From a virus, in IMG/VR virus record IMGVR_UViG_3300027741_000048, positions 1-64,000 of that record: a stretch of DNA of 64,000 nt; one strand, 5' to 3'. Below, in pieces: positions 54,959-59,252 of this stretch. Every line of letters begins with the position of its first letter. Positions within the stretch are counted from its first letter, which is position 1. A program made the translations under genes and the position numbers. The notes under the pieces were generated by a model. It was not told the DNA's origin. It saw only the letters and a program-made list of their open reading frames with translations, and made no database searches.

Positions 54959-55648
54959 CTAATTGCTAGCGTATTCACTTAGGAACTTTGTTTGGTTCTC
55001 ATTAAACGTTTTGTCGTTGAGATCACTCAATCCCGGTGATCCGTGAAACGTAAGAATTGGTATAACACCGAGCTTGAGCTTCTTCTTATTAGCATCAATA
55101 CAACTGGATATGTCGTAGTGGTGGAATGTATAATTTTCATTAAATCTCCAGTTTACTTCACGTACTTTTGCGGTATCAACAGACATGAATGCACCGTCTA
55201 AGATAGCTACACGCGCAGGCGTCGGACCAAAGCTAGTGATTGATGTTGTATTGTTGTTAGATACAAAATGGCCAGCAAACCCTCTTAGGTTACCACCTTG
55301 AAACCCTCCGCACATAATATGCCAGAGAGCAGGTGCCTTAATAATAGGATTAATACCACCGGCTAATCCTAAAATATTATACGTATTATGACCTATCTCA
55401 AGCTTTTTTAAAAAACCAGCGTCATCAATCCACATATCATCATGTGTAAAGAGGATAATATCAGATACGCTTTTATCTAACACCTTATTATATATCTTAC
55501 TTAGACTGTCTGTATTCTGCGTTTTAAACGTCAATTTATCCAACACACTAACATGAAATTCGCGTTCGAGCTTAGCTAAGCTCTGATATAGGTAAGTCTG
55601 CTTGTAGTCGGTTTTTTGTGTACAGGAGAAAATTGAGATTGTTTTCAT
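54959..55648 (-). CDS. Glycosyltransferase, GT-A/GT2-like
   Basis: SLSKIYN, ILFTHDD (DxD-like), LGLAG, LDGAFM, FNENYTFHHYDISSC. Confidence 0.75.
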   Translation of the reverse strand: MKTISIFSCTQKTDYKQTYLYQSLAKLEREFHVSVLDKLTFKTQNTDSLSKIYNKVLDKSVSDIILFTHDDMWIDDAGFLKKLEIGHNTYNILGLAGGINPIIKAPALWHIMCGGFQGGNLRGFAGHFVSNNNTTSITSFGPTPARVAILDGAFMSVDTAKVREVNWRFNENYTFHHYDISSCIDANKKKLKLGVIPILTFHGSPGLSDLNDKTFNENQTKFLSEYASN

Positions 55649-56331
55649 AATAAAAAGAACGGTGAGTTTTTTGTAAAGCCTCCGACAGATGTTATCCCTT
55701 CGAGAGTTATTTGATATAAGACGCCTTCTTCCAGGGAAGTAAAATTAGTCTCTGGAAGAGATGAAAAGGTATTATTAATCAGGTCTGCGTAAATAGTGCT
55801 ACCAGATCTCGCAATGAAAGTATTATGTGTTACTTTATTATAAATCCATAATCCAAATGTACCTTCGAGTTTTGAAAGAATTTTACAAATAAGATCGGTT
55901 TCGCTTAACCCTGATTCGTCGCTTTCTTGCGCTAACAAGGCAGGTATTACTGACGAATCAACCTCATTAAATGTATTTTTATCTCGAACTTGGTTTTTTA
56001 GTTTAATGTCATTAGTTAATACGCCATTGTGCGCGACAACCCACATATTGCATTCAAATGGGTGTGACGTTTTTCGATCAAAGGAACGTTTAGAGCTTGT
56101 CGGTGCCTGTGTATGTCCTAGATAATAATAAAAATCGGATGGTCGCATTGATACACTACTATTTTGAATTGACATATTTTTTGACAATTCAACAACGCTT
56201 TCTTCTTTAACGATAGCGTCGTATGCATGACTTAAAAATAAACCGCCGTATGCAAATGTACCACGTTCTTTATTTTTATTATAAAGTTTGCTGTATTTAG
56301 CAAACTCGTTGGATCCAAATATTCCGCAAAT
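55645..56331 (-). CDS. Class II (Ntn) glutamine amidotransferase, extended to a non-canonical ATT start
   Basis: The frame stays open upstream of the track's ORF to ATT-TGC-GGA-ATA-TTT-GGA = (M)CGIFG. Also ERG, LGHTQAPT, SHPF, AHNGVL, VDS, LEGTFG. Confidence 0.85.
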   Translation of the reverse strand: MCGIFGSNEFAKYSKLYNKNKERGTFAYGGLFLSHAYDAIVKEESVVELSKNMSIQNSSVSMRPSDFYYYLGHTQAPTSSKRSFDRKTSHPFECNMWVVAHNGVLTNDIKLKNQVRDKNTFNEVDSSVIPALLAQESDESGLSETDLICKILSKLEGTFGLWIYNKVTHNTFIARSGSTIYADLINNTFSSLPETNFTSLEEGVLYQITLEGITSVGGFTKNSPFFLL

Positions 56332-56335
56332 AGCG

Positions 56336-56371
56336 TTACCCTCCTCTCCTGTTTGAATAGCTAATATTCAT
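56336..56371 (-). other. 11-aa leader ORF MNISYSNRRGG containing an AGGAGG Shine-Dalgarno
   Basis: ATG lies 10 nt after TTGATA-N16-TATAAT. The stop is 4 nt before the amidotransferase ATT. Confidence 0.55.
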
Positions 56372-56381
56372 AGTATGAATT

Positions 56382-56409
56382 ATTATATCTATAAAATAAC
56401 CAATATCAA
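56382..56409 (-). promoter_or_regulatory. Sigma70-like promoter (TTGATA-N16-TATAAT)
   Basis: Consensus-like boxes upstream of the leader/Gat/GT unit. Confidence 0.55.
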
Positions 56410-56522
56410 TACAGGAAAATTTTATATTGGTTAATATAATAGTCAAAGCTCGGTTGTATTTAGATATTTTAAAATTTAATATCGAACTTCTGCATATGGA
56501 TAAGAATAAATAATTCAAGCAT

Positions 56523-57419
56523 ATGAATCGTGATTCACATTTAATTTTTGAAGCATATACGCAGCGTTTAACGGAAATGGCTCTTAAGACAGATTATACA
56601 AAGGTCCGTGAAGCTATCATTAATGGTCTAAAGGGCAGATCAGGTAATTCTTATCTCTTTAAGACAGTTGCAGATAAAACTGGACAGAGTGTAGAAGAAG
56701 TTGTTGATGTACTTGTTAAGCCTGTGATCGACGCGTTATTCCCAGGTGGTGTATTCTCATCGACAGGTGAGAGAAAGGACCAGGTCAGTAAATTACAAAA
56801 TTCGATTCATCAAGAGCTTGCAAGACAGTACGGCAGTGCTGTATCAGGTTATACAGCGAGAATTATTAAGAATTTTATCGATAATGTTATCGAGACAGTA
56901 GATGATGAAGTTGAGCAAGGAGAGCCTGTTTCAGATGCTAAGAATGACGTTGTAGCAGCGATTGCACAGGTTGCTGATAAATCTGAAGAAGAGGTAAATA
57001 GTGGAGCTACGCAGGAGCAGCCATTAGAAGTAGATGCATCTACAGAAGGTAGCGCCGGTGGCAATGCACTATTACAGCATGCTGTTGATCAGGTTGGTGA
57101 TGGTATTAATGAGGATGAATTAATTGATATTCTTAAACAGCATATCGTACAGAAGGATTCTGATGTTAGTGAAGCACGTGCCAAAGGCCAAGCAAAAGGT
57201 GTTATTAACAAGCTTATTGCATCAAACGTCCTTACAAAAAGAGGTACATATCTTGAACCTGGTGAAAAGGCTGATGAGTTTGCCGAAAAGGGTGATTTAT
57301 CTCTTGTCGGTGCTAGTGAAAAAGAATATGCCGCGCGTGAATTCGGTGTTGGTAGTCGACCGACATCAGGTCGCCAAGTCTTCGGCGGCGAAGACAGATT
57401 CGGCGGAATGTTCGGTTAA
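56523..57419 (+). CDS. Acidic late protein, possible internal head protein
   Basis: AATAAATA upstream; begins MNRDSHLIFEAYTQRLTE; inserted antisense between queC and gat. Confidence 0.55.
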   Translation: MNRDSHLIFEAYTQRLTEMALKTDYTKVREAIINGLKGRSGNSYLFKTVADKTGQSVEEVVDVLVKPVIDALFPGGVFSSTGERKDQVSKLQNSIHQELARQYGSAVSGYTARIIKNFIDNVIETVDDEVEQGEPVSDAKNDVVAAIAQVADKSEEEVNSGATQEQPLEVDASTEGSAGGNALLQHAVDQVGDGINEDELIDILKQHIVQKDSDVSEARAKGQAKGVINKLIASNVLTKRGTYLEPGEKADEFAEKGDLSLVGASEKEYAAREFGVGSRPTSGRQVFGGEDRFGGMFG

Positions 57420-58132
57420 ACCTTACCGAGTAAGTGATCCCAGGGTATATTTCTAGAATATTTAAGAGGATCCTCAATACCTGCATCTATAAAGCCCTTA
57501 AGTCTCAAAGCACATGCTGTGCATTCTCCGCATGCTTCTTCAAGACCTTCATAGCAAGTCCATGTATGACTAAAGTCAACACCGAGCTTTAATCCGAATT
57601 CAATAATCTCCTTCTTTGAGAGACCAATTAATGGAGCTTCAATGGTAATTTTATTTCTCCTATTCAAAACAGTTATATTATTAATAACTGATAAAAACTC
57701 TGGCGATCCATCCCAATATCCTGCGACAGAGTCAGCTTGAGCTGCACCGTGATATACAACACCGGCACCGAAGCTTTCAGCGTATGAGCATGCAATGCTC
57801 AAAAGCATCATATTTCTAAATGGTACGTAATTAACTGTTTGCGGGTCACCCATTACATCTTTCGCTTTAGCAACATCAATAGTATGATCTGTTAACGATG
57901 AACTCTTAATACTATTAAAAAATGGTAACTCTACTACATTGCTAGTACGTATTTTACTATTAACGGTTTCGTTAACATTATTAATCTGCCAACTAGCGTA
58001 TTCTAATTCTTTCTTATGTCTTTGACCGTAATCAAAAGAGATGACATGTACATCATCAAACTTTGATGCCGCTAAATGCAGTAGTACAGTACTATCCATA
58101 CCACCGCTTACTGGCACTACAACCTTACTCAT
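57416..58132 (-). CDS. queC: QueC-family (7-cyano-7-deazaguanine synthase-like) PP-loop ATPase
   Basis: SGGMDS, FDYGQRH, YVPFRN, TWTCY...CGECTAC zinc site. Start placed at MSKVV. Confidence 0.92.
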   Translation of the reverse strand: MSKVVVPVSGGMDSTVLLHLAASKFDDVHVISFDYGQRHKKELEYASWQINNVNETVNSKIRTSNVVELPFFNSIKSSSLTDHTIDVAKAKDVMGDPQTVNYVPFRNMMLLSIACSYAESFGAGVVYHGAAQADSVAGYWDGSPEFLSVINNITVLNRRNKITIEAPLIGLSKKEIIEFGLKLGVDFSHTWTCYEGLEEACGECTACALRLKGFIDAGIEDPLKYSRNIPWDHLLGKV

Positions 58133-59252
58133 TTTCAAGTACCTCGAGATTATCACCGCTTACTTCAGCGCTGTTATATTTATAATCTTCAGCTAGCCGC
58201 TTATCTAGTTCAGGAATAATAAAATCTTCAAAGAAAGATATATCCTTAACAAAATTCTTTGCATAACCAAGTTTATCGCCCTTCTTATATTTACCTGAAT
58301 CCATACCGACAACATAGGTAGAACCGGTTTGTTCGATAATACCACGAGCGGTAGCCATTTGAAGAAGACCACTGTATTTGTTAAGTCCAGACTTAAAAGA
58401 AAGATACATCTCAGCTTCAAGAAAAGGCGGTACAAATCGGTTCTTAACTGTAAGTGCGCGAATAGTAGTACCAGAGTATTTGTTAGCTTCTGCAAGCTTA
58501 GTTGTATTTACTGCACCTGAATCACCTTCACCTTCTTTTTCATTTCTCTTTGCAAGCTGTACAAGAATACTCGCCATATAAACAGGACCTGATCCACCGG
58601 ATTGAGTTTTAACTAAAGACGGAAACATGGCACCAGGATCAGAATATGTATGATTGGTAAAGAGAATCGTTACACCCGCTTTACCTGCCTTATATGTAAG
58701 GGTTCTGAGCATCGATTTAAGTGACTTTGCTCTTAGACCCATATCAGCTGCTGATTTATCCTTAGCAATATCGTCAATTTCCTTTTGTGATGATAGATTA
58801 CCGAGACTGTCAATACTAATAATAAACTTACCCTGCTGACCTGCTTCAATTACACTATCAAGAAATGCTGATATTTGATTACGACATTGATCAACAGTAT
58901 AAACTGGAACATATTTTGTCTTACTAGCATCAAGTCCTACGCCTTTCGTCGATCCTTCGTCAATAGCAAACTCCGTATCGAAGATAACGGGAATAACGTC
59001 TTGCTTCTGAGCGTTAGCAAGAATCTTATTAACAATAAATGTCTTGCCTGTCATTGACTCACCGGAAAATCCTATTATACGCCCCTTCGGTACTCCGCCT
59101 TTTCTACAGCTGCCTCCAAGTATAGCGTTCAGTGCATAGCAGCCTGTATCGTACCAGGTGTCAACGTTAGAAAGAGCGTTGTCATCGAGAAATGAGGCCT
59201 CAGCATTCATTGAATCAAGCTTTTTGAAAATGTTATCAATTTCTTTACTCAT
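58125..59252 (-). CDS. uvsX: RecA-like recombinase UvsX
   Basis: DTGCYALN, GESMTGKT, FDTE, IDSLGNL, ADMG.RA, TNHTY, SGGSG, KNRF. Confidence 0.93.
   Translation of the reverse strand: MSKEIDNIFKKLDSMNAEASFLDDNALSNVDTWYDTGCYALNAILGGSCRKGGVPKGRIIGFSGESMTGKTFIVNKILANAQKQDVIPVIFDTEFAIDEGSTKGVGLDASKTKYVPVYTVDQCRNQISAFLDSVIEAGQQGKFIISIDSLGNLSSQKEIDDIAKDKSAADMGLRAKSLKSMLRTLTYKAGKAGVTILFTNHTYSDPGAMFPSLVKTQSGGSGPVYMASILVQLAKRNEKEGEGDSGAVNTTKLAEANKYSGTTIRALTVKNRFVPPFLEAEMYLSFKSGLNKYSGLLQMATARGIIEQTGSTYVVGMDSGKYKKGDKLGYAKNFVKDISFFEDFIIPELDKRLAEDYKYNSAEVSGDNLEVLENE

Follow-up and report, generated by a model that had tools for sequence, protein, structure and literature searches.

A phage amidotransferase gene family that probably alternates between an AUU start behind a Shine-Dalgarno sequence and an AUG start without one

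Translation of the Escherichia coli gene pcnB, which encodes poly(A) polymerase, is limited by its AUU start codon. Leaderless mRNAs are known from lambda cI and from many Caulobacter, actinobacterial and archaeal genes. Initiation factor 3 (IF3) opposes leaderless AUG starts as well as AUU starts led by a Shine-Dalgarno (SD) sequence, and it accepts GUG and UUG. To our knowledge, conserved AUU starts outside infC are very rare. A survey of 61,358 ancestral AUG starts recorded one switch to AUU, 363 switches to GUG and 113 to UUG (PMC5622118). At E. coli infC, the junction with the upstream open reading frame (ORF), thrS, reads UAA-GGU-AUU with the SD in the end of thrS, and reinitiation and de novo initiation contribute about equally; behind an SD, AUU yields roughly 4-8-fold less product than AUG (PMC3592434). 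Leaderless mRNAs are far more AUG-selective than leadered mRNAs, and SD pairing aids near-cognate starts (PMC8459731; PMC5622118). In phages, 9g and its relatives combine Gat-QueC with 7-deazaguanine DNA modification (PMC6884629). Here we examined positions 1 to 64,000 of the IMG/VR record IMGVR_UViG_3300027741_000048 (64,000 nucleotides (nt), hereafter the window), which derives from an uncultured T4-like freshwater phage. The gene of interest is gat, encoding a predicted class II (N-terminal nucleophile, Ntn) glutamine amidotransferase, for which the AUU at 56331-56329 is very probably the true start.

The gat gene (55645-56331, minus strand) is open from the ATT at 56329-56331 to its stop at 55645, giving 228 codons and a stand-alone protein of 228 amino acids (aa). 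The ATT abuts the TGC codon of the catalytic cysteine, and the codons after it read TGC GGA ATA TTT GGA. An AGGAGG at 56340-56345 on the same strand lies 8 nt ahead of the ATT, separated from it by the spacer GTAACGCT and embedded in the purine run AGGAGAGGAGGG at 56350-56339. This SD is contained in an 11-codon mini-ORF, MNISYSNRRGG (56336-56371, minus strand; ATG at 56371-56369, ten further codons, TAA at 56338-56336), which ends 4 nt before the ATT. Further upstream, a sigma-70-like match TTGATA-N16-TATAAT (56382-56409, minus strand; TTGATA at 56409-56404, TATAAT at 56387-56382) agrees with the consensus at 11 of 12 positions, and the mini-ORF ATG lies 10 nt beyond its TATAAT; the match was kept in all loci of type C. 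A first-pass annotation of the window had read the minus strand in just this way, as a promoter match, a mini-ORF, AGGAGG, ATT and CGIFG. It had also pointed out that the CGIFG N-terminus was missed by the ORF track, which indeed held only the 180-aa tail of gat, from a TTG at 56187. A UUG overlapping AUU-UGC was considered as a start and rejected, since by reading it lies out of frame.

Neither an ATG at 56329-56331 nor an indel fusing the two frames was seen in the assembled contigs compared. One contig of 927 nt (X2), assembled in another study from another sample, matches 55724-56650 with 0 differences, and one of 151 nt (X3), which comes from a third study, matches 56280-56430, again with 0 differences; neither held a variant at the start codon. 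With this agreement across studies, the gat start is not an assembly error.

Gat was assigned to the class II (Ntn) glutamine amidotransferases, with predicted glutaminase activity, because it scored above threshold for both Pfam families GATase_6 (37.5 bits against 27) and GATase_7 (27.8 bits against 25), its structural model matched GlmS and PurF, and its HNG and Asp blocks aligned with those of GlmS (hNG). The AlphaFold2 (AF2) model had a predicted local distance difference test score (pLDDT) of 91.5 and a predicted template modelling score (pTM) of 0.90, with a confident fold from residue 2. Foldseek matched it to the glutaminase domains of GlmS and PurF (E ~1e-10; 1xff, TM 0.72/0.70), and the family profile matched 1xff, the GlmS glutaminase domain, with an E-value of 1.9e-10. 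In the family alignment, Cys2, Arg23-Gly24, His-Asn-Gly 101-103 and Asp125 were invariant. Gat thus shows what defines a class II amidotransferase, namely Cys at codon 2, the profile match, the Ntn alpha-beta-beta-alpha fold, the oxyanion-hole residues N102-G103, R23 and D125. The first mature residue of Ntn amidotransferases must be Cys, and methionine aminopeptidase accepts Cys as second residue. The 453 database homologues are mostly 227-228 aa long and start with MCGIF. In a tblastn search against cultured phages, the sole match to Gat was a 24%-identical protein of an Alteromonas phage, the closest named phage. The protein carries no synthase domain, and its gene has queC and two glycosyltransferase-like genes as neighbours.

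Relatives' DNA was taken from three IMG/VR scans (the best 80 loci per scan, of ~300-336 relatives), and the codon preceding the Cys was called as the start. Among the 98 distinct homologous loci counted in this way, ATT preceded the Cys in 40 loci (33 with AGGAGG, 7 with GGAGG) and ATG in 58 (53 without an SD, 5 with a weak or mis-spaced SD), while GTG, TTG or any other start was found in 0. All 40 ATT loci had a GGAGG or AGGAGG 8-10 nt ahead of the start, and there was no ATT without an SD. The ATT loci span 46-77% protein identity and several clades. Hence, aligning the upstream regions of homologues, as the first-pass annotation had proposed, revealed a conserved ATT with a conserved SD in 40 of the 98 loci, and its alternative of a private mutation, with relatives having a plain ATG and no SD, did not hold.

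The N-terminal residues were kept in the ATT loci while their codons changed. Cys2, Ile4, Phe5 and Gly6 (C-x-I-F-G) were invariant in all 40, with synonymous variation at Cys (TGT in 10, TGC in 30), Ile (ATT in 7, ATA in 33) and Gly (GGA in 18, GGC in 12, GGT in 10). This pattern implies that the N-terminal stretch is translated in the gat frame. It also bears on the reading that gat is a pseudogene, carries a private start mutation or yields only a Cys-less C-terminal part of 176-180 aa. Gene callers do give truncated ORFs here, of 176 aa in the window (P0003) and of 214, 212, 196, 188 and 175 aa in relatives. We nevertheless attach almost no probability to this reading, as the ATT recurs in 40 distinct loci of diverse protein identity, the synonymous variation points to purifying selection on CGIFG, the full-length frame is intact, the model is confident from residue 2, the position of the downstream start is not conserved and the identical sequence was recovered in three studies. 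We conclude that gat is an intact and very probably functional gene.

Canonical start codons offered no consistent alternative. Of the 40 ATT loci, 36 contained no ATG, GTG or TTG in the interval that runs from the in-frame stop upstream (or from the limit of the 60 nt inspected) to the Cys, and the first downstream canonical start was scattered from residue 14 to residue 202. Because an upstream canonical start is missing in 36 of 40 loci and the downstream start wanders, the ATT is the sole conserved candidate start. The gene therefore has the characters of an AUU-initiated gene: AUU where homologues have AUG, no canonical alternative, an AUU kept among relatives and an SD at initiation distance.

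Bacillus subtilis PurF removes a short propeptide, and an upstream in-frame start followed by autocatalytic, PurF-like removal of a propeptide would likewise expose the Cys of Gat. Candidate starts in the window are the ATA at 56367-56365 and the ATT at 56358-56356, and by reading the frame is open for 13 codons ahead of the gat ATT. Furthermore, in two relatives (L015:2965-3684 and L016) a single base (AAT GAT for AAT AAT) gives rise to an ATG in frame with the ATT and 12 codons ahead of it, and the gene is called there as a 239-aa ORF beginning MIFIQTGEEGNAI-CAIFGS. L014 and L017, to which these two are most closely related, do not have this ATG, however. Many ATT loci have an in-frame stop 2-9 codons upstream, inside the promoter or adjoining it, in addition to the lack of an upstream canonical start in 36 of 40. 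The -10 box lies 18-22 nt upstream in most ATT loci, so that the mRNA would hardly hold upstream codons, and the SD spacing is right only for the ATT beside the Cys. The upstream in-frame canonical start and conserved propeptide of a PurF-type arrangement were not found, and we consider this explanation very unlikely.

Initiation at the AUU itself is also what the promoter spacing favours. In most relatives, the ancestral promoter consists of cTTGAAT, a 16-17-nt spacer and TATAAT, and lies right beside the point where the divergent gene starts. Counted from the -10 hexamer, the gat start codon lay 18-22 nt away in 35 of the 40 ATT loci and 6-11 nt away in 30 of the 33 promoter-anchored ATG loci, and the extra bases between the -10 hexamer and the start in ATT loci are the SD and its spacer. 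A close pair illustrates the change: L020 reads TATAAT-attaatgaa-ATG, whereas L019 reads TATAAT-attaat-GGAGG-tacaatatt-ATT, so that the two differ by an ~11-nt indel carrying the SD and by a G/T change.

From these spacings we infer that the ATG forms are leaderless or nearly so and that the ATT forms are short-leadered. In the first design, the AUG would stand 6-11 nt behind the -10 box without an SD, on a leaderless or near-leaderless mRNA like those of most genes in this phage. In the second design, a leader of ~13-15 nt would begin roughly at the SD (AGGAGG in the window) and run into the AUU. There, the AGGAGG with its 8-nt spacer would position the 30S subunit and initiator tRNA would read the AUU as formylmethionine (fMet); methionine aminopeptidase would then strip the Met, Cys being a small second residue, and expose the catalytic N-terminal Cys. 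Since leaderless initiation depends on AUG, and near-cognate codons depend on help from an SD, just two combinations of start codon and SD are seen. An ATT lacking an SD would be non-functional, and ATG behind a strong SD would probably lead to too much enzyme in an SD-poor genome; the SD-AUU combination probably gives a modest, tuned output.

The state of the start codon was mapped onto a maximum likelihood tree of Gat proteins from which the first residue had been removed. ATG and ATT changed 7 times on this tree, at least 5 of these changes being forced by well-supported branches, and a strong SD accompanied ATT in all 5 (or 7) phylogenetically independent pairs. Several points weigh against the proposed scheme. 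The sign test on independent pairs is weak (5/5, p = 0.0625), and the sampling of relatives was limited. Some of the ATG/ATT switches are clearly module exchanges and not new mutations, because the window leader is 87-92% identical to that of loci with only 60-69% identity in the gat coding sequence. The ATT+SD modules, which have GGAGG-TAA-like spacers in common, may have one origin, in which case the lack of GTG and TTG would count for less. The 9 nt between TATAAT and ATG means that the transcript of the ATG form may carry 0-3 leader nt, and 0-3 leader nt already weaken leaderless initiation in E. coli (PMC8459731). The best matches of the DNA polymerase were ~30% identical (pelagiphage HTVC008M and cyanophages) and did not point to a host.

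The mini-ORF was much less conserved than the ATT and its SD. It was found in 5 of the 40 distinct ATT loci, all belonging to a sub-lineage associated with a homing endonuclease gene (HEG), and 26 of the 40 were without any ATG over the preceding 60 nt. Its middle is variable (NISY, NNIY, NDIY), and on the opposite strand it overlaps a TAAATA-like motif before the HEG. Because 35 of the 40 ATT loci lack it, the mini-ORF is, as far as comparison of these loci can tell, not required for AUU initiation. Locally it may matter, as the arrangement UAA-CGCU-AUU, with the SD in the last codons, resembles the thrS-infC junction. The first-pass annotation had offered two readings of the leader. SD-driven AUU initiation coupled to leader termination has strong comparative support in its first half, given ATT with GGAGG or AGGAGG at 8-10 nt in 40 of 40 loci; the coupling could apply in only 5 of them.

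The second reading was a prfB-like +1 frameshift, in which the leader would be translated, the ribosome would stall at GGG-UAA-C, the internal SD would pull on 16S rRNA, and slippage to GGU would lead to a 14-residue propeptide that is later removed. Among the extended N-termini that rival readings would give, MNISYSNRRGGNAI-C... and ILAIQTGEEGNAI-C..., the former is tied to this shift. The zero-frame ORF does end in GGG TAA C, GGT AAC GCT ATT TGC is in frame with gat, and a purine-rich, SD-like run just upstream is reminiscent of prfB. Re-pairing from GGG to GGU is possible on paper, and an AGGAGA lies 3 nt before the GGG, but the AGGAGG overlaps the GGG, that is, the shift codon itself. The 8-nt spacing of the SD suits initiation at ATT and not the prfB geometry. 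The leader ORF is missing in 35 of 40 ATT loci, with 26 of 40 devoid of any ATG in 60 nt, and all of them keep ATT and the SD; nor does the varying mini-ORF encode a conserved propeptide. Hence a zero-frame ORF ending at the stop of the shift site, as in prfB, is present in 5 of 40 loci and is not conserved. The frameshift is both unnecessary and not conserved, and we regard it as extremely unlikely.

The leader showed no significant RNA structure. The two weak hairpins at the leader ATG to which the annotation had assigned possible control folded no better than shuffled sequence (z -0.5 to -1.3), and leader RNA folds of the window, L014 and L062 had z-scores of -1.3 to 0.0, as expected by chance. 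A small, very weak AU hairpin that covers the start of the mini-ORF is kept. A search of 56250-56600 against Rfam at permissive thresholds returned only chance-level matches (E >3, far below gathering), without a preQ1 or other riboswitch. The leader and promoter motifs were not found elsewhere in the window or in the 79-kb phage record; this single occurrence argues against a repeated cassette.

Remnants of an HEG lie between gat and the divergent gene, on the plus strand. A 5' remnant of a GIY-YIG (Seg-like) HEG at 56375-56434 comprises 19 codons, MNYYIYKITNINTGKFYIG (to 56431), followed by a stop. A 3' remnant at 56457-56513 holds the last ~17 codons, ...LDILKFNIELLHMDKNK, and a stop (compare the C-terminus of the L015 copy, ...LDILKQYKVELLYTMKNK), and its end overlaps the spacer of the old promoter. 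The -35 element of the ancestral gat promoter, TTGAAT (56513-56518, minus strand), is common to the relatives, and its -10 element has been lost in the window (TATGCA, 56496-56491). In L015 and L062, an intact HEG ORF of 244 aa, starting with MYYYIYKITNINNGKFYIGS, occupies the same interval on the strand opposite to gat (L015:2223-2957 (-) and L062:2223-2957 (-)); the two copies are 70% identical to each other. The motif YIYKITN...GKFYIGS is visible in this ORF. The Pfam scores of the L015 copy were all below the cut-offs (GIY-YIG 20.9 bits, cut-off 22.6; SegE_GIY-YIG 18.2, cut-off 25; NUMOD1 16.8, cut-off 22.8). In a blastn search against cultured phages, the only match was one of 52 nt between the HEG remnant and the region of a coliphage Seg-like gene that codes for the GIY-YIG motif. 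Most likely, the 244-aa ORF encodes a Seg-type homing endonuclease. The TTGATA-N16-TATAAT of the window sits within the first codons of this HEG, on the opposite strand. The annotation had called it a promoter; the match is present, and in this AT-rich stretch such matches occur at chance level (2 found, 2.6 expected).

The ~100 nt upstream of the ATT were almost identical in seven sequences (the window, L014-L017 and L062/L063), at 87-92% identity to the window, although their gat coding sequences were only 60-69% identical. The three groups with this common leader fall in different parts of the protein tree, each beside ATG-type sisters. Hence, the SD+ATT module of the window seems to have been transferred among phages along with the endonuclease gene. 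A relative from the source sample has an HEG-less leader, in which the old -35 element is joined directly to TATAAT, followed by the mini-ORF, the SD and ATT; this layout implies that the mini-ORF ATG occupies the place of the ancestral, presumably leaderless gat ATG. In the window sub-lineage, the SD+AUU module would thus have come with, or beside, an HEG that was inserted between gat and the divergent gene and was later internally deleted, and the mini-ORF, starting at the site of the old leaderless AUG, may pass ribosomes that terminate on it to the AUU, in the manner of thrS-infC. The HEG is intact in some relatives, absent in most, internally deleted in the window and, in a co-occurring relative, cut back to roughly the six codons at its 5' end, states that look like a full cycle of invasion, decay and loss.

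SD sequences are scarce throughout this genome. In the window, 59 of the 60 non-nested ORFs of at least 80 aa had no AGGA, GGAG or GAGG core in the 22 nt before their start. The AGGAGG hexamer occurs 5 times in 64 kb on both strands, and the only one to precede a gene start is that of gat, in line with the earlier remark that gat has the only strong SD before any gene. The pattern is lineage-wide, as in the flanks of related loci GGAGG stood ahead of 3 of 216 and 1 of 151 ORF starts other than that of gat. Many window ORFs have a TAAATA or ATAAATA box, like that of T4 late promoters, 6-12 nt before the ATG; examples of SD-free starts with this box lie at 256, 8882, 9487, 23337, 25379, 32067, 37928 and 40282. 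The scarcity of SDs and these boxes suggest that leaderless or near-leaderless transcripts are widespread in this phage, and the flanks of related loci have the same pattern. A more distant gat clade (L163-L190, 221-237 aa) has another gene context and no SD, with TATAAT 6 nt before the ATG and a stop codon (TAA, TAG or TGA) directly ahead of it.

The combinations GUG, UUG and SD with AUG at optimal spacing were never seen for gat among the 98 loci. One explanation would be that AUU was specifically selected, and not just tolerated, with gat toggling between two modes that IF3 opposes, leaderless AUG and SD-led AUU. We consider this doubtful. If true, the phage would couple a DNA-modification enzyme, perhaps its whole gene set, to IF3 and to the state of the ribosomes in the infected cell, and the switches would count as evidence from nature for a translation programme that responds to IF3 throughout the phage. 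The purpose of the SD+AUU start may be simple dose tuning or IF3-linked control, and the translational rheostat suggested in the first-pass annotation would be such a role.

The phage record, 79 kb and about 36% complete, includes genes for a UvsX-like recombinase, a gp43-like DNA polymerase and a single-stranded DNA-binding protein (SSB), and belongs to an uncultured, distant T4-like virus. Downstream of gat lies a glycosyltransferase-like gene (54959-55648, minus strand; Pfam Glyco_tranf_2_5, 37.1 bits, cut-off 27). The gat stop TGA overlaps its ATG (ATGA, 55645-55648), which suggests translational coupling of the two genes. On the other side, a divergent conserved gene, MNRDSHLIFEAY... (56523-57419, plus strand), had no Pfam family above cut-off and has a homologue in the same place in L015 and L062. 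Its product of ~300 aa (MNRD.HLIFEAY...) has an acidic low-complexity middle and a C-terminal ...GGMFG, and matched no Pfam or PHROG family. This gene is always opposite to gat, with a short promoter region in common, and its start is visible in the upstream regions of most relatives. Next comes queC, encoding a 7-cyano-7-deazaguanine synthase (57416-58156, minus strand; Pfam QueC, E 3.2e-60), which is likely to be a functional partner of gat. The queC ORF is listed from a GTG at 58156 and then overlaps uvsX; an ATG at 58132 (MSKVVVPVSGG...) lies 8 nt after GAGGT and is probably the true start, as it fits the start of the Pfam QueC model better (residue 11 when counted from the GTG). Neither RegB (PF10715) nor TGT/DpdA (PF01702) was found in the 79-kb record; both results are uninformative, as the record is 36% complete and, for RegB, the control was also without a match.

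AUU starts and their compensation by an SD are already known from infC and pcnB, and gat is a new, family-wide example and no new mechanism. It is unusual in that a whole phage gene family is involved, with at least 5 switches, no GTG or TTG, and a nearly SD-free genome. The family can serve as a natural experiment for two laboratory rules, namely that leaderless initiation needs AUG and that a near-cognate start needs an SD. In practical terms, ~40% of the gat family is mis-called, i.e. N-terminally truncated and without the catalytic Cys, and two database Gat entries are called long ('...I-CGIFG' or '...I-CAIFG'). Surveys of deazaguanine and amidotransferase genes in phages will therefore under-count or mis-judge gat. 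The uncultured, almost SD-free T4-like lineage is useful for studies of leaderless translation in phages, and its gat leader offers an apparent case of an HEG insertion travelling along with the translation-initiation module of a gene.

Among described systems, gat and queC recall phage 9g, in whose genome a class II amidotransferase domain is likewise associated with QueC. In the window, however, Gat is a separate 228-aa protein, and a divergent gene stands between gat and queC. The HEG resembles the Seg-type GIY-YIG endonucleases of T4-like phages in its YIY...YIG motif and NUMOD1-like region, in its location between two conserved genes and in its patchy presence; as in those, the flanking DNA, here the gat leader, is far more similar among carriers than the surrounding genes. 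It differs in its Pfam scores, which lie below the cut-offs, and the 244-aa ORF is a candidate homing gene. With prfB, which encodes release factor 2 (RF2), the window shares a short ORF running to a stop, a purine-rich, SD-like run upstream and a downstream frame in +1. In contrast to prfB, the gat mini-ORF is not conserved, the SD spacing fits initiation, and the codon of the essential Cys immediately follows an initiation codon in its own frame.

Like leaderless mRNAs, the ATG-type gat and most genes of the phage have promoter boxes a few nt before the start and no SD, and the strict link between ATG and the lack of a leader fits the known AUG requirement (PMC8459731). The gat of the window is the SD-led exception, and the leaderlessness of its relatives is deduced from spacing. 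As in infC, AUU replaces AUG and a good SD is needed; in the window sub-lineage, an upstream ORF also carries the SD close to its end, and its UAA is only 3-4 nt away from the AUU (UAA-CGCU-AUU). Unlike infC, gat encodes a phage enzyme and not an initiation factor, with no obvious autoregulatory loop, and its upstream ORF is an 11-codon mini-ORF and not a real gene, absent from most ATT relatives. With pcnB, gat shares an inefficient AUU start that apparently keeps the level of the enzyme low. Whereas the AUU of pcnB is a species-level peculiarity, that of gat is kept across a phage family, where it alternates with a leaderless-looking AUG.

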